From assembly GCA_965637545.1 (NCBI GenBank), contig OZ281499.1, positions 14,198,001-14,262,000 on the forward strand: 64,000 nucleotides of DNA, in the 5' to 3' direction. The notes beneath the pieces were generated by a model. That model saw nothing but the letters and a program-made list of their open reading frames with translations. It did no database searches and was not told the origin of the DNA. The stretch comes from Phallusia mammillata. Lineage: Eukaryota. Positions within the stretch are counted from its first letter, which is position 1. Every line of letters starts with the position of its first letter. Positions 16,537-64,000 of the stretch are shown piece after piece. The translations under genes and the position numbers were made by a program.

Positions 16537-17085
16537 AATAATAAAAAATTAACTGTCGCGCCAAGCCCCAGAACCTTTCCTGTGCTTCAACGCGAGTTTC
16601 ATGCACTATTTATTGTATTTATATTGCGTATCCCAAAAATCCATTTTGCATAAATCTATTCTTTACGTGTTTTTGCAAATCCGCGTGTAAATATACCATA
16701 CGGCTTTTGGTCCTCCCATTTATATAAAAACAAGACTCTTATCCCTTCTATTGCGTGTAGCACTTTGTATAACAAGAAATTGTGCTATACGCCTATCTCC
16801 ACTTTGTGTAGTTGTTTTTCGCCTTTGTGTATTTTTGCGCCTTTGGGCACTTCTCTGCGATTGAATGTGTTTTTTCTCCTGTTTGCACACGTAAAACAGC
16901 CTTGTTATGTACTGCCTCTGTGTTTCTTCCTTTCGTGTTAAATTAAAAAAATATCCCCGTATTTTCTTTAGAATTCTACCGCCTTTGTTTACATTTCTCT
17001 TTGCGTAAAAAAATCCCCTTGTATGATCTCTATTGTGTTTGTTTATTTTTCGCACTATTTACTATCTCTATATTTAAAATCTCAT

Positions 17086-17290
17086 CGTATGTTTTCTATT
17101 GTCGTTGTTTACCTTTCGCTGTATCCACTATTTCTATCTTTAAAATTCCCCTCGTAAGTTTTCTATTGTCTTTGTTTACTTTACGCCGTAGCCACTATTT
17201 CTATCCTTAAATTTCCCCTCGTATGTTTTCTATTGTCTTTGTTTACTTTACGCCGCTACTACTATTTCTAGCTTTAAAATTCCCTTTTTC
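17086..17290 (+). repeat. Three diverged ~65-bp tandem units in the 3' UTR of B (also 29617-29820 in F)
   Basis: Repeated CGTATGTTTTCTATTGTC..GTTTAC..CACTATTTCTATC..TAAAATTCCCCT. Confidence 0.8.
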
Positions 17291-17421
17291 TTTATTTTTC
17301 TATCGTCTTTGTTTACTTCTTTGCTGTGTGTACGACTTCCATGTATCTGACCTTTCCTCGTATCCTTTATTTTTTTCCCTTTTTTCCCCTCATATTACAC
17401 TACGCGCGCACACTATTCTAA

Positions 17422-17889
<468 letters not shown>

Positions 17890-18011
17890 TAACGGATATA
17901 TATTGTGGATTTACGTGGATTACTGGACTTTTGTGGATTACCAAACTCACACCTAGTCTCAAGGAAACTCTGCTACACCTGTGCTCCTCTCAGGAGGTAT
18001 CCTGAGAGGCC

Positions 18012-19307
18012 ATGTCGGAAAAACCGACGTATGCAAATGCTGCCTCTGCAGGTAGCACTAAAAAAGCAACAGCGAACCAAGCTGCCGCCAAACCTCTTAT
18101 TTCTCCGGAGCAATGGAGAACAAACGGCGATGTTCGTTTTGAACCGGGTTTGCCGAGGGCCCAGATTTATGAACTTCTGGAAAACTTGAACTTTGATGTC
18201 CGGCGCCACCTTGACGCATTAGTACAAACACCTGGCGGAAAAGTAACGTTCAAAGCCCGCACCGAAACCTGGGCCAAACACTTGGCCAAAATTCTGAAAG
18301 AGTCGGGCAAGGCGACATACGTTTCACAGTATGGTGACAACGAAGAACGCCTCGTCATGTTGTATGTCCTCCCCCAGTACAGTCTTGAGATGACCAAGGC
18401 CATCATCGAAAAATTCACCGATGTTTATCGTTGTTGGCACGCTAGAGACGATCATGGCCTCCTTTCGGGCCGAAGAATATTCATAGTAAACAAGGAGAAA
18501 TTACACCTCAACCCGATGCCTAAACGCATGTCATTCGATCGCCGACGGATCGACATATCTTATCCTGACCAACCGGAATATTGCCCCCGATGCCGGGAGA
18601 TCGGACATGGCATCGAAACACACTTCAAACCAACCCAAGCACCACAAACGGAAAGCCCCACACATAATCCCCCTCCTTCAACAAAAGCTCCGGAAGATCC
18701 AATTGATGATTACCCACAGCTTGACAATCCACCAGCAACAAGCACCCCCAAACCCCAAAGATCATCCAACCCACCCCCTGACAGACCCCACCCACACCCA
18801 GACCTTGGGAAAAACCCAGCCCACAGCGACACACCACAAACAGAAAAAACCCAAGAGGCAGCAGTATATAACGCGGACCAGGATATGGTACTGGTAGGAA
18901 ACACAATGGAAATTGAAGAAGATGCGGGTGGAGATGGCGAACTTCACGGAGACACAACACAACAGGATCCAAGTAAGCCCACTTCTCTTTTTAATACTAA
19001 ACGTAAACGCTCGCAGACACATCCTGCGAGCCCAGAACAGGACTTAACAACGACTAGATGTTGCCAAATGCGACTAACAGGTGTTGAAATGCAGTGTAAG
19101 TGCAAGCATGTGTTTGTACGCTGCACTTGTGGTCAATGGACTTTAAAGCCAGCATTAAAAGAGTACATTAAATGCCACAAAATGGACTGTCCGAACATCC
19201 ACCTCAGATGCTTTACGTGTACAAAAACACTAACTGTTCCTCCAGGGGCCTCTACCACATGCACATGTGGAGCTGTTTTACCACAAGATTTCAATGAAAC
19301 GCTATAG
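18012..19307 (+). CDS. ORF1 of C, intact 431 aa (putative RRM region, knuckle, Cys-rich C-terminal domain)
   Basis: Uninterrupted ORF; YCPRCREIGH; C-terminal CC..CKC..CTCG..CHKMDC..CFTC..CTCG. Confidence 0.85.
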   Translation: MSEKPTYANAASAGSTKKATANQAAAKPLISPEQWRTNGDVRFEPGLPRAQIYELLENLNFDVRRHLDALVQTPGGKVTFKARTETWAKHLAKILKESGKATYVSQYGDNEERLVMLYVLPQYSLEMTKAIIEKFTDVYRCWHARDDHGLLSGRRIFIVNKEKLHLNPMPKRMSFDRRRIDISYPDQPEYCPRCREIGHGIETHFKPTQAPQTESPTHNPPPSTKAPEDPIDDYPQLDNPPATSTPKPQRSSNPPPDRPHPHPDLGKNPAHSDTPQTEKTQEAAVYNADQDMVLVGNTMEIEEDAGGDGELHGDTTQQDPSKPTSLFNTKRKRSQTHPASPEQDLTTTRCCQMRLTGVEMQCKCKHVFVRCTCGQWTLKPALKEYIKCHKMDCPNIHLRCFTCTKTLTVPPGASTTCTCGAVLPQDFNETL

Positions 19308-19440
19308 ATACCCCCAACCCTAGACAAACCTATGTACCCTCATAAACCCTTGAAAGCCCTATTTTAAGCACCAGAACCCTACGGCAACTATCCCCTTTGT
19401 TGTTAGTTTTTTTCCCTTTTCTTCCCTCTTTGCCGGAACT

Positions 19441-21550
19441 TTGGAAAATCCACTGACAATCACAGAACTGAACACACTGACAAAATCGCTTCCGAAGGGA
19501 AAATCTCCTGGACCAGATGGCATTTCCATTGAATTCTACATCCACTTCTGGAAGATAATTGGAGCCGACCTTACATCAGCCCTTAATTTTGTTTACCAAA
19601 CAGCCTCAATGGAACCAGCTTTTGCTCAAGGCCATATAACTCTCATCGCAAAACGAGACGACCCAACACACCCTTCGCAGTTTCGACCCATCACCCTACT
19701 CAATACGGACTACAAGATCCTAAATAAAGCACTAAATCAACGTCTACTCCCTTATTTTGACAACATACTATCAAATTTTCAATACGCAAAGCGAGGCTCT
19801 TCAACGACACAAGCCTCAAACATGTTGCGAGATCTTTACACAGAAGCCAGGAGACGGGAAAACAACACTTTATTCGTCTGCATCGATTTTAAAAAAGCTT
19901 TTGACAGTCTAGATCACCAATGGATCAATTTTGTTCTTACTACCAAAAACTTTCCTACTCGCTTTCTTAATTATATCAAAGCCTTACAGAGCTCTTCAAG
20001 ATCGCAAATTTTGATTAATGGAACAATGACGCCCCCCATCTCCATCCAAAAAGGAGTAAGGCAAGGAGACCCCCTTAGCCTTTCCCTTTTCACGATCGCT
20101 TTGGACCCTTTATTGGTAAGCATTCAAAGCAACCCAGCAATAAAGATGACCCCCTCACCATCCAGACACACACCCAAAACTGTTGCGTTCGCTGACGACG
20201 TCACCTTGGTCACGACGGGCACTACGTCTCTGATCGAAGCGTTTAAAACAATCAAACGCTTTACGTCTCTCACACACCTGAAACTCAACGAAGAAAAGAC
20301 GCAAGCCTTGGCAGTCATAGAACCACCAGTCCTCCCACATATAGAGCTGAAAATTCAATGGTCCACAAATTCAATCTTTCCATTAAATATACCAATCGGA
20401 AAACCAGCCATTATACAACGTGAATGGTCTACGCTGATAGTAAAGTTTAAAGAAAAAATCACGAAACTTGCAGACTCCTTCCTGACAATGGATACCAAAG
20501 CGGTCCTAACCAAAACTGTTTTGCTCCCACCTTTTCAAAACTTGCTTCCACCTACCCTATCCCCAATGCCAAACGGGACCAAATAAATGAGTTAATCAGC
20601 GGTTTTATGTCCGGGAACAACCACAAGAATTTGAAAATTCCATCACACAGGTTATGCCTACCCAGAGAAGAAGGAGGGTATAATGCAGCCGACATCCCTT
20701 GCTACCTGGATGCTTTTTACATCAGAAATGTACAAGAATACCTCCAGCACAGATTATTTGATACTAATACAACTCCACAACTGTCAATAATAGAATACAA
20801 CATTGGATTCCAACTGTCTACACTTCTGGAACTACGGAAAAGAAACTCACTCCCGCACACACCACATCCATCCCCCCACTACGTTGAAACTCTAAAGATC
20901 ATAAAAAGATACAACATCTCAACCCAAGCCCCCATATCTCTGCGAGTGAAACCCACATATAACTATATGATAAGTCAACGGAAAACCCATCAACCCTGGA
21001 TACATCCATCATGGCATCTGATTCACCATCCAATTCTGCCCAACTACCTAAAAACTTTTAATTATAAACTGACGGAAGAAATTATTCCAGTAAAATCCAA
21101 ACTAATCCCCAATATTCCGGACCTTGACCCAAATTGTACCCTCTGCAGGGTCTCCTACGAGAACATACCCCACCTTTTCTTCCGATGCCCGGTGGTGCAG
21201 CCTGCACTAAGACTGATCAGTCAAGTGTTTAGACGCATATCAAGAATTCAAGTGGACATATATAATAACCCAAACTTTATCTACAATATTGCCCCCCCCC
21301 AATTGAAGAACCAAGATCTCAAGCACTTTTTGCGGTCCTAAACACCTCACTTCTACACGCAATTTGGAAAACACGAAATAAATCCAAAGACAAACCAACG
21401 AGTCAACAAGAAGCAAAAGAGAATCTGATAAGAACAATTAAAAGATCACTCAACTACCGACTCCACACAGAAAGGATACGTTCCTGTCAGAACTACAAAG
21501 ATTTGAATCTCGTAGCCATCCAAGAAATGGAGAACTGTGACCCCATCTAA
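19441..21550 (+). pseudogene. ORF2 of C: RT and zinc domain only
   Basis: KSPGPDG, FRPITLLNTD, DFKKAFD, GVRQGDPLS, AFADD, CTLCRVSYENIPHLFFRC. No endonuclease motifs between 19308 and 19440. Confidence 0.88.
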
Positions 21551-22108
21551 AAAACCTGCATGCACACTATATGTGTCCAATTACATATAGATTTAGGCTC
21601 CCTTTAACTTTTTGTACCTGTGACAACTTTTTTTTTCTCTTGTTTGCTTATGATTTAGGGTCCTTTTTTAACTTTACTTACGATATCACTCGCCTTATGT
21701 TCTACACATAACTAATTTGAGTCAAGCGTTCTTCCCTGTTTTTGCGACTCTTCCGTCGCACGCACCACGCAACTTCCGAAACACATACTATCTGTGTCCT
21801 ACACCGGCTTCCCTAAACTTGTTGTACCTATGACAACTTGTTCTTTTGCGTATGATGTAGTGTCTCTTATTAACTTTACTTACGCCTTTACTCGTTATAT
21901 ATTTTGCGCGAAACATATTGACTTCTGTGCCTTTTCCTCTTTTGTGTTCCTTCTGTTGCACGCTCCATGGGTAAATTACACACTATCTGTGTCAAATTAT
22001 ACACAGAATCAGTGTCCTTGAAACCACCTGTAAATCGGACCAACGCGCCACCTTATGCTGAGTTTTCCCTTTATTGTGCGATCTAATGTGACACAAATAA
22101 AAACAAAA

Positions 22109-22606
<498 letters not shown>

Positions 22607-22631: not shown

Positions 22632-22647
22632 GGCTCTTTTCAGAGCC
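22632..22647 (+). terminator. Histone 3' stem-loop of H3
   Basis: caaaac-GGCTCT-TTTC-AGAGCC-acc, then GCGAAAGAGA. Confidence 0.93.
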
Positions 22648-23126: not shown

Positions 23127-23142
23127 GGCTCTGAAAAGAGCC
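23127..23142 (-). terminator. Histone 3' stem-loop of H2A
   Basis: Reverse complement GGCTCT-TTTC-AGAGCC-accc, then GCAAAAGAGA. Confidence 0.93.
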
Positions 23143-23182: not shown

Positions 23183-23560
<378 letters not shown>

Positions 23561-23731
23561 ATACCACAACGGAAACAGCAACGTTATCATCGAACACATC
23601 ATCAGGATACAGTAAAGGCTATTGATAGATTTCGATTCTTTTACTGACCAGACGAGTTTGTTCTTGTAACATTTTTGTTTAGATAGTACGTTCTCTTCAC
23701 TTTTTTCTGGGTGAATTGAACACACATAAAC

Positions 23732-23747
23732 AGTCCTTTTCAGGACT
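23732..23747 (+). other. Histone 3' stem-loop-like hairpin in the 5' region of F
   Basis: ataaac-AGTCCT-TTTC-AGGACT-accc; 21 of 22 nt identical to 7169-7190. Confidence 0.7.
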
Positions 23748-24005
23748 ACCCTGCAGCCTTGTTTTCAGTTTTGGATTTGAGGCAGCTTTTGTTAGTTTCA
23801 TGTGGGTAACTTGTTTACAAGTTTCCCCAGAAATTTCATTGTTCTTGTCCGCTTGCAAGCGGTTCGAGGAAGGTTTTCTTTGTTTAGAGAAGCCGCTTGT
23901 TGCTGTTTCCCGCTTTCACACGGGTTCGTGCAACTTCACACCGGTTGGTGCAGCCTTTTCTTTGTTTGAGGTTAGTTCTTGTTGTGGCTTTTACAGCAGC
24001 CCAGT

Positions 24006-25611
24006 ATGTCCTACGCTGCCGCCACAAAGAAGAGTTTGGCTCCCACAGCCACCACTGCAAATGAAGGTCAAGAGCCTTTCGCTTTCGACCGAAATGTCGA
24101 GGTGGAAGCCCGCTTTAACCCTGGCCTGAAAAGACAGGAGATTTACGAAGTTTTACGGGCTATCAGGTTCAATTTTCGAGCCGACTTGGACGGCATCATT
24201 CAACTGCCGAAGGGCCGAGTTACTTTTTATTGTAGCACGGAGGCGAAGGCCAAAGATCTAGCGGTCGCTCTGACCAACAGCCAAAGGGCGGATTACGCCA
24301 CAGCCTACGCTGACAATCTAGTGAAGGTTGTCATGTCTCGCTGTCCCCCAGGGATTGATATGCGAGAAATCGTGGATTATTTGGACAGAACGTACGCTCC
24401 AGTCGAGCGTTCTTACAGAGTTAAAGACCCGATGAGCAAGTCTCTGGGGGAAACGGGCTTTCTTTATGAAGAGATCCGTTCTCGCGGAAAACCCCATCCC
24501 AGAAAGCATCTTTCTAGGAAAGTGGTCAGTGTTAATGTTCTACACTGGCCAACCACGGGCTTGTGCCTATTGTCAGATCGTAGGCCATAAGAAGGAGGAA
24601 TGCTCGTCGCTGCTGGAGCGTCAGGCACAGCAAACCCAAGAACAGCCTGATGTTCCAGCTGAAGCACCGGAGGAGATCGGAACAACATCCCCTCCCCAGA
24701 CCTCGCGACAGGTGCTCCCTGGTCAGGTTGAGCGACTCGGTGGTCTAGCCACGGAAACGGAGGAGATCGCAACAACATCCCCTCCCCAGACCTCGCGACA
24801 GGTGCTCCCTGATCAGGTCGAGCGAGTCGGAGGTCAGAAGAAGGATACGGAGGAGATCGCAACAACATCCCCTCCCCAGACCTCGCGACAGGTGCTCCCT
24901 GATCAGGTCGAGCGAGTCGGTGGTCAGAAGAAGAACAAGAAGGAGGAGGAGACAACAACGTCAGCCCCTTCATCGACCTCGCGACAGGTGCTCCCTGATC
25001 AGGTCGAGCGAGTCGGTGTTCAGAAGAAGAACAACGAGGAGGAGACAACAACGTCGGCCTCTCCATTGACCTCGCGACAGGTGCTCCCTGAAAAGGTTAA
25101 GCGAGTCGGTGGTCCAACTACCAACCCCAGGAGTCCGCGGTCGAAGCTCCCAAATATGGTTGAGCAAGCCGGTTCTCCTGGGCCTGCGCCAAGTGCGCCC
25201 ACGACCTCAACACCCAGGATTACCCAAGGAAATGAGGAAGGGGTCGTCTCCCTTCCGGACACATCGCTTCCAGAGGAGATCATCACCCCACAGGAGGAAG
25301 GATACAAGATCGTCCGGAGGAGGAAACGACCAGCAGCGACACCGCCGAAGAACCGGACAAATTGCTGCCTTACAGCATACGAAGGTAGAAACATGCGTTG
25401 TTTGTGCGGCACAATGCACATTAAGTGCAAATGTGGCACTTACGCCACAGAACAGAACTATAAAAGCCCATCGCAGTGTACTAATAAAAAGTGTAAAAGA
25501 CTGCTAATACAATGCACTTGCGGAAATTGTTATAATTTAGCGCGCGATGAACGAATTCTCTGCTCATGCAAAGCTCGCATACCGTCAGATTTTAACGCCA
25601 CATTTTTTTTA
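24006..25611 (+). pseudogene. ORF1 of F (frameshifted) with five ~30-aa tandem repeats and a Cys-rich tail
   Basis: MSYAAATKK..; CAYCQIVGHKKEEC knuckle; repeats EEIATTSPPQTSRQVLPDQVERVGG (24670-25110). Confidence 0.85.
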
Positions 25612-25657
25612 AAAAACTGTGTTACCTTATGGTTCCCCTTTTCATTCAAACGTTAAA

Positions 25658-28600
25658 ATGGCGCCGACCAGTTTTCTAAAAATCTGTACGCTGAATGTAA
25701 ACGGCATAGGCCAGGCCTCCAAACGCCACGCCCTGTTCCGTCATCTGTCCTCTTTAAACTTTGACCTTTTTTGCCTCCAAGAAACCCACTCTACCCCCCA
25801 AACCGAATCCCTGTGGAAGTCCGAATGGACTTCCGGCCCCATCCTCTTAAACTCGGCACCGCACAAAGGCTCCGCCAGCGGCGGTGTCGCAGTTCTTCTA
25901 AACTCCTCTAGTATTTCCATTCTAAATTCTATTTCCGACTCCACCGGTCGTATTATTACGACCGACATATCTACCCGAACCCACACCATCCATATCGTAA
26001 ACATTTATGCACCCTCCGGCAGTAAAAATCATCAAGCCCGCAACACCTTTTTCGACTCCCTGTACCCTTACATTAATTCACCTCACCCTATCATCCTAAC
26101 CGGCGACTTCAACTGTGTAGAAAAACCCTCTCTTGACAGATATCCCCCCAGCCATACCCACCCTCCTAATAAAACTCTACAGAACCTTCTAACAACCTTT
26201 CACCTGCAGGACTCTTTTCGGTTACTCCACCCCACCTTACGCCAATTCACCCGTCGAGCACCTAACACCCAATCCCGAATCGACCGCATTTACATATCTC
26301 CAGCCCTCACCCCAAAACAACACACCTTCCTCCCAACATCCCTTTCAGACCACGACCTTGTAATCCTCACCCTGAACCTAGTCTCTGCCCCACCCAGGGG
26401 CAGAGGCACTTGGAAAAACAACGTCAACACCCTTCACGATCCTCACTTCCAAAAACACCTCCGACAACTCTACCCCGTATGGAAAACCCTTGCCCCATTC
26501 CACCCCAATCCCTTGGACTTCTGGTTGACCCTTAAAGTAAAATTCAAAAAACTTATCCAAACCCACTCAAAACGAATTGCCCAAGAACAGCGTACCCATA
26601 CCCACAACCTCCAGACCCAACTTAACACCCTTCGGCAAACCCTCAACGACGACCCTTCCTCTGAAAACTACAAAACCTTCCTTGCTGTAAAAAAATCCCT
26701 CGCAACTCTCCACCTCGACACCGCCCGATCCCATCTAATTAAATCCCTCGCTTCTGACCCCCATTTCAAACACATGGCAGACAAAACCCTTTACTCACAA
26801 CTCCTCCCCTCCAAACGACACCCCCCGATAACCGAACTGGAAAACGACCTTGGACTTCCCCTCACCACACCCAAGGAAATGCTTTCCCATACTCACCGCT
26901 TTTTTACAGACCTCTACTCGGACCAAAACAAACCTATCCCACCCCCGGACAATATCTTTTTGAAACAACCACTTAACCCCATACCGGAAGACCAAACCCA
27001 ATTCCTATCCCAACCATTATCGAAAACCGAAATAAAAACTACCATATCCCTTTTCCCAAACGGCAAAACCCCGGGTCCCGACGGTCTCAGTGTCGAGTTT
27101 TACTCGCTCTACTGGGACCTAATCGGGGCTGACCTCACCCGAGCCCTGGACTATGCGTACCTCAACGCCTATACCCCTTTAGAATTCAACCTTGGACACC
27201 TCACCCTAATCCATAAGAAGAACAACCCATCCCTCCTCACAAACTACCGCCCCATATCCCTCCTGAACGCCGACCTAAAAATACTACAAAAAACCCTAAA
27301 CCTCCGCATCAAACCCTTCCTTTCCCAGATAATTTCCCAAAACCAATTTGCACAACCCAATTCGACCACTTCCGACGCCACAACCCTCCTCCGCGACCTA
27401 TTTCATGAAGCCATATCCTGTTCCTCTGATTCCTTTTTTTGTTTCGCTCGACTTCGAAAAAGCCTTTGACTCCATTTCCTACACCTGGTTAAAATTACAA
27501 CTTACCCGAAAACGTTTTCCCCCTACCTTTGTCAATTACATTCTTTCTCTGCAGACCACCGCTTACTCAATGGTTTTGCCACAACGGGCTTCCCGATCAG
27601 GAGAGGTGGCCGGCAAGGCGACCCGCTGAGCTTGACCCTCTTCCTGATTGCCATCGACCCATTACTCGCTGCCATCCAAAACCACCCTTCGATATCACCT
27701 GTCCCAGCCCCTTGTCGAAACACACCAAAAGCAATCGCCTTTGCGGACGACGTCACCCTTGCGGTGGCCGGCTCCCATTCCCTAGAAACATCCTTTCAAT
27801 TAATATCCCGTTTCACCCTGATTACCGGCTTAGCCCTAAACCCCACCAAAACCCAGGCGATTGCTACCCTCTGCCCCCCAAACTCTCCAAACCTCCCCGA
27901 TATCAACTGGAACCCGACTGTAATCACCCCTCTCAACATTCCCATCGGCCACCCCAAATCCATCACCGCAGCATGGAGAAACGCCATCTGCTCCCTTAAA
28001 GAAACCTCCACGTCCCTCAAACACCCTTTCCTCACCTACGACGCCAAGAGCATTTTAACCAAAACCCTGCTTCTCCCCAAACTCTCATACCTGGCACGAA
28101 CCTACCCACTTCCACCCACGCAGCGAGAAACAGTCGATGGCATTGTGGTAGACTTCATTTCAGCCTACCCAAATCCTCCCCTCCCAATAAAAACCCTATC
28201 CGCACGTCGTGACCTTGGTGGTTACGACGTCGCCAACATTCCCTTATACACAGACATTTTTTTTCTTGCACCCCTACGGAAATACCTATTGCACAGAATT
28301 TTTGATACCCCGACAACACCCCAGCTTTCCCTACTCGAGTACCACGTTGGACACCCCATCTCCAGACTTTTTAACCTCCGCACCAGAAACTACCTTCCCC
28401 CTTTTACCAGACCACTTTGTCGCTACTTGCAAAACTGAACCCAACACAATCCGAACTGTTATCCCCAAAATCCAAACCACTCTACACTAGATTAGTCAAC
28501 CCTGACCCCGACCCCACGAATCCCACCGATTGGTCCCTCATCCACCACCCAATTCACCCCAACTACATTAAAACCTTCAACTACCGACTGAAACAAAAAA

Positions 28601-29067
28601 CCCTACCCCTACACTGTAAATTCACCATATTCTTTCTTGACAAGGACACAAACTGCTACCTTTGCAACACCCATTTCGAAACCTACGACCACCTTTTCCA
28701 CACCTGCCCCCAAATACAAAGCCTCCTCACCCTTGCAAAAAAAATCTTCACCAAAACAACCGGAAATCCAACCACCTACTTTGACACCCCCTCCCACTAT
28801 GAATTTATTAAACCCGACCACCCTTCAGCATCCGAACACACACTTATATCCCTACTGAATTCAACCCTCTCCCATGCGATATGGAAAACCCGTAACAAAA
28901 TAAAAGCCGAAACCCACTCCATCAGCCCCACACTTGACAAAGACCTAGCCCGATCCCTAATCCGATCTTTACACTCTAAACTTTCTATCCAGCGGAACAG
29001 GCCAAACTCTATCCACTTGGAGGTCATGGCCAACGCCGTTAAAGCTATCAATTTGATAAAAATATAA
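25658..29067 (+). pseudogene. ORF2 of F: APE-RT-zinc domain (three lesions)
   Basis: TLNVNGI, LQETH, GDFN, SRIDRIY, SDH; RT motifs; extra T near 27435, 13-bp deletion near 27568, frameshift near 28400. Confidence 0.9.
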
Positions 29068-30958
29068 AATAATAAAGAATTAACTGTCCCGCCAAGCCCC
29101 AGAACCTTTCCTGTGCTTCAACACAAGTTTCATGCACTATTTATTGTATTTATATTGCGTATCCCAAAAATCCATTTTGCATAAATCTATTCTTTACGTG
29201 TTTTTGCAAATCCGCGTGTAAATATACCATACGGCTTTTGGTCCTCCCATTTATATGAAAACAAGACTCTTATCCCTTCTATTGCGTGTAGCACTTTGTA
29301 TAACAAGAAATTGTGCTATACGCCTATCTCCACTTTGTGTAGTTGTTTTTCGCCTTTGTGTATTTTTGCGCCTTTGGGCACTTCTCTGCGATTGAATGTG
29401 TTTTTTCTCCTGTTTGCACACGTAAAACAGCCTTGTTATGTACTGCCTCTGTGTTTCTTCCTTTCGTGTTAAATTAAAAAAATATCCCCGTATTTTCTTT
29501 AGAATTCTACCGCCTTTGTTTACATTTCTCTTTGCGTAAAAAAATCCCCTTGTATGATCTCTATTGTGTTTGTTTATTTTTCGCCCTATTTACTATCTCT
29601 ATATTTAAAATCTCATCGTATGTTTTCTATTGTCGTTGTTTACCTTTCGCTGTATCCACTATTTCTATCTTTAAAATTCCCCTCGTAAGTTTTCTATTGT
29701 CTTTGTTTACTTTACGCCGTAGCCACTATTTCTATCCTTAAAATTCCCCTCGTATGTTTTCTATTGTCTTTGTTTACTTTACGCCGCTACTACTATTTCT
29801 AGCTTTAAAATTCCCTTTTTCTTTATTTTTCTATCGTCTTTGTTTACTTCTTTGCTGTGTGTACGACTTCCATGTATCTGACCTTTCCTCGTATCCTTTA
29901 TTTATTGATTATTATTTTTATATACCTTTATTCCCCTCAAGTTACACTACGCGCACACTATTCTAATTTATACCCTTCTTAATCTATACAGAAAGATACG
30001 TTAAACAACCACCTATTGTACCCACCCACACTTGTAAACTATTAACTCTCTGTCTCTCCCTTTTTTTGTTGACGTATTTTGTTCTTGTATCGTCACGGGA
30101 AGCCACCAAAGAAATAAAGTCAGCGTTGCAAGCTGCTTTTCACAAATCCGGATTAAAGCTAACATTTCGGGAATTTTCCAATAGAGATTGGAAAGAGAGT
30201 GTGGAATTTCTTGATGTTTTGCACTGCTATTCAAGTGTTACAAAGTTACATTTCGTCACCAAAGACCACGTGAAAGAAACAAGCAAACACCGTTGCTTCC
30301 TGCACGGAACTTCCCATCACCCTTCACATGTATTTCGGGGCATTGTGTTGGGTGAGGCCAGTAGATTAAGAAGGCTGAATGAGTTGGACAAAGACTATTT
30401 CACCAGTCTGGAACGACTCAGGGAAAAGTGCCAAAGATCTGCGTTTCCCGAACGCATTACAGAACAGTGTTTAAGTGTTTCGAAAACTTGGATGAAACGG
30501 TTCGCGTCACCAACTTGTCGATCCAGCAAACCAAGGATAGCTTGGGGTACAGCTTTCCCACAGGCAGCTAAGGAAAGGGACTTACAACTTTCCGCGACTG
30601 TAGTTTATAAAAGAGCAAGTACCCTGGGGAACCTTCTGACTAATTACAGAAGCTTGGCCCATGCACCACAATAGCCCGTCGGCCAGTCGCGCCCTTGCGA
30701 AAAGTGTGCTTTGTGTGGCAATCATGGCAGTCATAAGAGCATGGTTTATAAACAGCGCAAATTCACAACACACGGACAAGTTTTAGAATTGAAACAAGAC
30801 CTGGACTGCAAGTGCTACGGCATATATGCGGCTACTTGCAACATATGCAGCGCACAATACATTGGACAAACAAAAAACCGGTTTAGCACCCGTTGGACAC
30901 ATCACAGATCCACATGGAAAGAACACAAAGTAAATGAGGAAAATGACAATGCAGCATT

Positions 30959-63740: not shown

Positions 63741-64000
63741 GAAGAACCAATGCCAAAATGTTAAAAAAAACACATCAAACATGAATTTTTGTATTTTATT
63801 TTTAAAATACATTTGAACACTGTTGGCAGATTTTTTTAAGTCTGCACGCAATCCACCAGACCTTTTGTCAACAGAAACAAATAACTTTTGAAACTTTTTT
63901 TGGCAAGATTATGAGACAATGTTTAGACAAACAAGTTAACAATGTAAAAAAGAACATTCTAAAGTGCAGTCGTGTAACTGCTCAATGAAGTTGTTGTAGT

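Follow-up and report, generated by a model that had tools for sequence, protein, structure and literature searches.

The window, a 64,000-nucleotide stretch of the Phallusia mammillata contig OZ281499.1, is the edge of a histone cluster, and in it a hairpin of histone mRNA type lies in the 5′ leader of a LINE retrotransposon, element F. This locus raises the question of why a retrotransposon should carry such a hairpin at the 5′ end of its RNA, and what would read it there. The features concerned are as follows.

6880–11662, forward: element B, degenerate, with an H3-leader-like start (5′ boundary approximate)
7174–7189, forward: near-twin hairpin of family B with a UCUC loop, 3 nt before the ORF1 AUG at 7193
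12027–12042, forward: genuine H4 stem-loop with downstream element, for comparison
12380–17595, forward: 5′-truncated F-family copy at H3 codon 5, without leader and without hairpin
22632–22647, forward: genuine H3 stem-loop with downstream element, for comparison
23127–23142, reverse: genuine H2A stem-loop with downstream element, for comparison
23183–23560, reverse: H2A gene, head-to-head with the 5′ end of element F, promoter deleted, premature stop
23563–23591, forward: 5′ end of element F, a 29-nt copy of the H4 5′ leader from the H4 start site (27/29 identical)
23563–24005, forward: 5′ leader of element F, more structured than its shuffles (z −4.85)
23732–23747, forward: histone-type stem-loop in the element F leader, AGTCCT-TTTC-AGGACT (6-bp stem, UUUC loop, A-U bottom pair)
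24006–25656, forward: element F ORF1, frameshifted in this copy
25658–30093, forward: element F ORF2 (APE endonuclease and RT) and 3′ part, ending at about 30093 with the poly(A) missing

The stem-loop is present with the flanks taaac (5′) and accc (3′), just as an earlier note on this DNA had given it. Histone stem-loops follow the consensus GGYYYU-UYUN-ARRRCC, and measured against it only the bottom pair departs (A-U, not G-C), which agrees with what that note had claimed; compared with the H4 loop of the window, two compensated pairs differ. Both strands of the window were scanned for 6+4 hairpins with a fully paired stem, G-C as the second pair and the loop U's. Six sites emerged, namely the three genuine histone loops, the element F hairpin, the near-twin at 7174 and an unrelated site at 63828. 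The F hairpin forms a separate hairpin in both the MFE and the centroid folds of the 468-nt leader, and Markov simulations on five leaders gave a chance expectation of 2–8 × 10^-4 matches per leader. By this expectation, by its own fold and by its recurrence at homologous places in many families (see below), the hairpin exceeds chance.

Like the histone 3′ stem-loop (Rfam RF00032), the F hairpin has a 6-bp stem, a 4-nt U-rich loop with U1 and U3, G at stem position 2, a U-A closing pair and, in the window copy, an A-rich 5′ flank and an ACC 3′ flank, which vary among copies and carriers (see below). Unlike it, the hairpin has an A-U bottom pair and is part of the 5′ leader in a long retrotransposon RNA, not 3′ of a histone stop codon, and the element DNA ends with AATAAA and poly(A). 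The adjoining upstream gene is H2A on the opposite strand. A downstream element about 15–20 nt past the stem, where U7 cleavage would need it, was not found: positions +12 to +30 hold 6 purines, whereas the five genuine loops in the intact unit have 12–14 there, and neither genuine HDE 8-mer is matched with fewer than 5 mismatches. The family B hairpin is likewise without a purine-rich downstream element, and for both families the missing cleavage element agrees with the earlier note. Against RF00032 the F hairpin scored 16.7 bits (E 0.33), under the gathering score of 34, compared with 32.9–36.6 bits for the genuine neighbouring histone loops, and it is therefore unconvincing if taken alone. 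Although it would work in the manner of a histone stem-loop, four features set it apart from a histone 3′-end signal: the bottom pair, the score, the place in the RNA and the missing downstream element.

Nearby, an intact histone unit spans 4993 bp in the order H1, H4, H3 and then divergent H2A and H2B. Elements of 5.4–6.6 kb repeatedly interrupt the units; they have ORF1 and an APE-RT ORF2 and end in poly(A) or an A-rich stretch. The 3′ junctions measured at H4, H3 or H1 all fall between −3 and +19 nt relative to the ATG (8/8), all in sense orientation; at H2A, two further junctions are in the leader and one is at codon 6. The target zone is the 5′ leader to about codon 7, not a single sequence. 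Element F is an APE-RT (Tx1/L1-like) LINE family with sense insertions at the 5′ ends of histone genes; the label "Tx1-like" is provisional and taken from its architecture, our trees containing only the elements analysed here. The window copy has lost its promoter and its ORFs are broken, the first frame of ORF2 stopping at 27469. Three other F copies have intact ORFs, encoding an ORF1 protein of about 500–530 aa and an ORF2 protein of 1146 aa. An intact F ORF2 has 100% identity to a "Pol-like protein" that UniRef lists under Phallusia mammillata. The main array is followed at C6:14.409–14.428 Mb (L037–L039) by another, diverged type of histone repeat (about 82% identical, unit of about 6.2 kb).

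When the genome was searched with window positions 23560–24100, nine matches were found, eight reaching the leader and the ninth beginning past it. The identical 16-mer is present in 8/8 copies that reach the leader, including two old ones with leader identities of 91% and 79%; two of the eight, on small contigs, are possibly duplicates of a C6 copy. At C6:14.357 Mb and on the two small contigs, element F follows an intact H4 promoter and leader, while the window copy and two others carry the slightly diverged 29-nt H4 leader head-to-head with an H2A start. The hairpin, which the earlier note would have given up if other full-length copies were without it, is therefore kept in all eight 5′-complete copies and also in family B. 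Nor is it an outside remnant of a deleted H2B or H1 3′ end, since the element starts 169 nt earlier in all contexts. Within the leader, 73% of the alignment columns are invariant and the hairpin is one of two 18-nt invariant runs, so that the F copies alone prove little. The base run before the stem is AAAC in three copies and AAAG in five, including the copy that matches RNA contigs, and the 3′ flank is ACC in 7/8 and ACT in 1/8; the AAAG flank counts against an SLBP site. Three F copies share an identical head-to-head H2A junction with differing 3′ flanks, suggesting recombination between copies. The premature stop in the window H2A lies at 23436–23441, and the duplicates L002 and L003 are without it. 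The F copy at C6:14311931–14318481 (L027–L028) occupies the breakpoint at which the histone array flips orientation.

The hairpin also lies inside the transcript. Contigs of runs X1, X2 and X9, from three studies, which we took as RNA by guess (no listed run is labelled as RNA), begin on the H4-inserted copy L032 at 5097, 5094 and 5101, within the H4 leader. They span the hairpin (nt 170–185 of the element RNA; L032 4917–4932) and extend into ORF2, the X1 contig being 6107 nt long. These three runs leave the spacer bins 6001–6960 of L032 empty, whereas run X13 fills all 30 bins. One X9 contig matches L032 with 0 differences over 478 nt and has a loose end at 5101, 28 nt past the H4 TATA and equivalent to window position 23563; the letters of this loose end are presumably a template-switch primer, and similar loose-end letters also occur about 50 nt before the H1 ATG. 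As judged from contigs and one loose end rather than raw reads, transcription of element F most likely begins at the host H4 promoter and continues through the hairpin, with an internal promoter firing at the same base as a possible alternative. Neither this start nor the wider distribution of the hairpin had been recognised in the earlier note. For two ORF1-only elements in spliced-leader genes, the contigs were short and of low depth.

Outside element F, the near-twin hairpin belongs to the sister family B, whose window copy is joined by its 3′ end 3 nt before the H4 ATG at 11666. The RT regions of F and B are 62–71% identical, and a comparison of their leaders gives a single strong match, 21/22 nt with an E of 4e-6, which comprises the hairpin together with its AAAC flank; the match that ranks next outside coding sequence has an E of 0.34. 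Genome-wide, the motif occurs at 370 places compared with 47 in a reversed control. An ORF1 search gave 92 matches, and 66 of them, those within the genome part of the first 100 of the 370 motif places and with second pieces dropped, were compared with the motif positions. Among the matches listed, 52/66 are preceded, at no more than 700 nt from ORF1, by a consensus 16-mer that belongs to the element and has the same orientation, and among the 66 examined none has it antisense or downstream of ORF1. A 53rd sense motif upstream of an ORF1 match is a true H1 loop and was not counted.

Most carriers start with a copy of a spliced-leader exon and are found within spliced-leader gene arrays. Over its first 16 nt, the gene repeated in these arrays is identical to the most frequent spliced leader of Ciona (PMC1488885, Table 1). 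These carriers comprise an autonomous family, KAW, with an ORF2 36.5% identical to that of F, and several ORF1-only families of about 3.5–4 kb, with one or two histone-type hairpins each. The ORF1-only families usually have two, HP1 at about nt 213–275 and HP2 at about nt 440–500. After HP1 come ACCAA and, at +19 to +21, a GAGAGAAT-like 8-mer, the corresponding position in true H4 and H2B being +16, and the best HP1 tested against RF00032 scored 24.2 bits, under the gathering score of 34. HP2 has C-rich flanks and no HDE-like 8-mer. Two 5′ A's are reported as required for full SLBP affinity (PMC10388802), and the C-rich 5′ flanks of HP2 count against an SLBP site. In the two AAPG families HP2 was lost by a deletion of about 20 nt and HP1 is canonical; in KAW, HP1 is absent and HP2 is kept. 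This pattern of redundancy speaks for an SLBP site. In KAW the local MFE favours another helix, which counts against one. The tandem spliced-leader RNA arrays, with units of 553–578 bp, lie at C3:11.0–11.33 Mb and C6:13.45–13.70 Mb (L100–L131). They are invaded by at least two APE-type LINE clades and several ORF1-only non-autonomous families, and the elements open with their own slightly altered leader exon and a GTAAG donor. No hairpin was found in the second, distant spliced-leader-targeting clade.

A relative on the metagenome contig L168, with a spliced-leader exon at its head, has AGCTCT-TTTC-AGAGCT about 50 nt before ORF1, and it was the only one of 80 metagenome loci (23 with at least 1800 nt before ORF2) with a sense hairpin. 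In the broken copy L155 the hairpin has decayed, in the spliced-leader-headed relative L154 it was not found, and an antisense look-alike in L229 we attribute to chance. Two dispersed, more distant L1-like loci and two broken clade members were inspected, and none had a near-consensus 16-mer with up to 3 mismatches. On another metagenome contig (L158:4147–4425), the 3′ end of a relative is joined to an H3 gene at about codon 10, and histone targeting is therefore not limited to this genome.

Aligned, 15 hairpin variants are paired in 90/90 cells, with double changes in three of the six pairs, and several are letter-perfect histone loops. In shuffles the covariation score was reached 0/500 times and the pair count 28/500 times. 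The rows of this alignment (A3) are related and were picked by likeness to the consensus, with j_HP1 (5/6 pairs) and several near-duplicates omitted, so that the covariation is supportive and not a p-value. In the ORF2 tree of the analysed elements, F and B group with E, and KAW groups with I1/I2 (90/92, not starred), implying several losses or several gains of the hairpin. The ORF1 tree carried long-branch warnings, and one gain with several losses fits it as well as several gains. Intact or near-intact families behind the same kinds of promoter are without the hairpin, which makes it dispensable. Taken together, the hairpin is real, selected and widespread in a clade, and its function we infer.

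The reading that we prefer, with a probability of roughly 55%, is that the conserved stem-loop in these target-specific Tx1/L1-like leaders binds SLBP without being cleaved and that the RNA would then be handled as a histone-type mRNP. Binding of the hairpin by SLBP, taken on its own, is highly probable, and the host genome has an SLBP gene. What all carriers have in common is the promoter of a non-polyadenylated Pol II gene; the target gene itself is not common to them. The cap-binding complex is described as routing RNAs to histone-type, snRNA-type or decay fates, with CBC/NELF connecting the cap to SLBP and CBC-ARS2 sorting short RNAs (PMC7462061). Given such promoters and this CBC-SLBP link, SLBP could be loaded early on the nascent leader, by which the element RNA would acquire a histone-mRNP identity, and its stability, export and translation might then be tied to S phase and to oogenesis or oocytes. 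The effect on the fate of the RNA would presumably be positive rather than repressive. In the established pathway, U7 cleavage requires the downstream element (PMC1635294); without one, F and B RNAs should not be cleaved by U7, which fits the read-through contigs. For the roles of SLBP in histone mRNA we refer to PMC3763545, PMC6239174 and PMC11997800. According to the account of SLBP CLIP in HeLa cells, no real non-histone target emerged (PMC4604434). This counts against the preferred reading, as do the A-U bottom pair and the Rfam score under the threshold.

The position of the hairpin weighs on the other side. Its distance to the ORF1 AUG is 3 nt in B, about 50 nt in L168, about 190 nt in KAW and 258 nt in F, always 5′. 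SLBP is known to act from the 3′ end of mRNAs, and in a 5′ leader it could equally block scanning. It might serve as a brake or timer, repressing ORF1 translation or keeping the RNA silent in oocytes up to the release or degradation of SLBP, much as IRP on a 5′ IRE represses translation. Such a repressive outcome, favoured by the place of the B hairpin 3 nt before the AUG, is the main rival. It is unlikely all the same, since the AUG distance is not conserved and repression is less obviously profitable for a parasite.

A selected structure read by a factor other than SLBP, be it ORF1p/ORF2p or another host factor, and derived from or convergent with the histone loop, would account for the off-consensus flanks in many carriers and for the bottom pair, which is A-U in the ORF2-bearing F, B, KAW and L168 and G-C in the ORF1-only families. 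We consider this improbable, as the positions invariant in the 15 variants (stem G2, loop U1 and U3) are those read by SLBP, several variants are letter-perfect histone loops, and the motif is kept although the ORF1 proteins of its carriers are only about 30% identical.

That the hairpin guides the RNP to the histone locus body, and hence insertion into histone genes, has in its favour that all five F-family 3′ junctions examined with poly(A) or an intact end, the cut-off window copy being the exception, lie near histone starts (H4 +15, H1 +12, H3 +12 and the H2A leader). Spliced-leader genes are the target of most carriers, however, and the hairpin was not found in the histone-targeting families I1, I2/A and C/E; the I1/I2 group stands with the hairpin-bearing KAW in the ORF2 tree. 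With carriers among spliced-leader targeters and three histone-targeting families that are without it, the hairpin does not account for histone targeting. The interpretation in the earlier note is supported in part; the localisation to histone loci that it had proposed is weakened by the equal conservation of the hairpin in the spliced-leader-targeting relatives and its absence from A/I2, I1 and C/E, and we hold a targeting role to be very improbable. The C/E, A/I2 and I1 elements (window 4745–6330 and 17741–22204; L025–L039) are also inserted in sense at histone starts and bear pieces of host leader, E starting with a copy of the H3 leader. The C/E families have a different, 9-bp hairpin directly upstream of the ORF1 AUG; a TCCT-CTC-AGGA hairpin there is a possible degenerate homologue of the histone-type loop and was not counted as one.

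A neutral relic of a captured histone 3′ end, or chance, is the least probable reading and is largely refuted by the conservation pattern: these elements do live in histone genes and capture host leaders, and the ACCAA and HDE-like GAGAGAAT after HP1 suggest capture as the origin of HP1, but the F and B leaders, elsewhere diverged past detection, still share a 22-nt island, stem changes are compensated, the hairpin is present in a second organism and decayed in a dead copy, and the chance expectation is as low as given above.

R2 elements are co-transcribed from the rDNA promoter and carry a 5′ ribozyme. Like R2, element F most likely uses a host gene promoter, and it has a host-derived 5′ end and a structured RNA signal in its leader; unlike R2, it has APE rather than a restriction-like endonuclease, two ORFs rather than one and a Pol II host promoter, the signal in its leader is similar to a binding site for a host protein, and read-through RNA was observed. 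It shares ORF1, an APE-RT ORF2, poly(A) and a multicopy-gene target with Tx1-clade LINEs such as Keno in U2 genes (PMC4640811), from which it and its relatives differ in their targets, histone gene 5′ ends and spliced-leader RNA genes, and in the histone-type stem-loop of the leader. Insertion of the relatives in spliced-leader RNA gene arrays recalls NeSL/CRE-type elements; NeSL is described as a restriction-like-endonuclease Utopia lineage of nematodes (PMC4640811), whereas the elements here are APE-type, live in an ascidian and carry histone-type loops. Outside Repbase reports and subscription reviews, our literature search returned no report of such histone-gene-targeting LINEs and no precedent for a histone stem-loop in a transposon leader.

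The SLBP stem-loop is regarded as exclusive to histone mRNA ends. If the preferred reading is true, natural and selected loops in transposon leaders would form a class of SLBP sites outside histone mRNA, through which mobile elements could couple their RNA to S phase and the germ line. They would also be a new means for a parasite to borrow the cellular histone-mRNA machinery. The leader hairpins offer natural variants, with or without a downstream element, with an A-U or G-C base and with one or two loops, for probing SLBP away from the 3′ end. Independently of this, LINEs that insert specifically at histone starts and in spliced-leader genes, whose promoters they appear to use, widen the known targets of site-specific retrotransposons.

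A broader proposal, which we put forward tentatively and consider doubtful, is that the clade co-opted the whole histone 3′-end system at the 5′ end of its RNAs and that SLBP mimicry is recurrent in transposons. SLBP on an uncleavable loop would give the element RNA its histone-mRNP identity. In the ORF1-only spliced-leader parasites, HP1, by its loop, ACCAA and GAGAGAAT at +19 to +21, is a candidate U7-dependent attenuator that would be cut by U7, and HP2 might protect or translate the RNA remaining after the cut. An unrelated Harbinger-type transposon would have placed a histone loop independently, timing its activity to S phase or the oocyte. A near-complete histone cleavage signal is seen at HP1 of L048:9207–9222 (−), L130:279–294 and 5160–5175 (+) and L118:7859–7874 (+). 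A U7 snRNA pattern search gave 16 matches and 16 control matches, none of the 11–12 candidates inspected had a convincing U7 fold or Rfam match, and a search with RF00066 (U7) gave two matches, both under the cut-off.

Sixteen scattered motif sites were inspected. Three correspond to HP2 of the LINE clade described here, one resembles a genuine 3′ end with a downstream element, and the other 12 are copies of a single Harbinger-type (DDE_Tnp_4) repeat, which strengthens the theme of histone loops in transposons. The positions of these 12 are:

L236–L239, L241–L246, L250 and L251 (for example L237:1531–1546), on contigs C1, C3, C4, C5 and C6: Harbinger-type loop sites

The repeat has taaac-GGCTCT-TTT(T/C)-AGAGCC about 20 nt past the transposase stop, with no clear downstream element. 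At L240:1515–1530 (C4:1963214), tblastn gave no histone match within 1.5 kb of a lone canonical stem-loop, which is followed by ACCCA and a downstream element.
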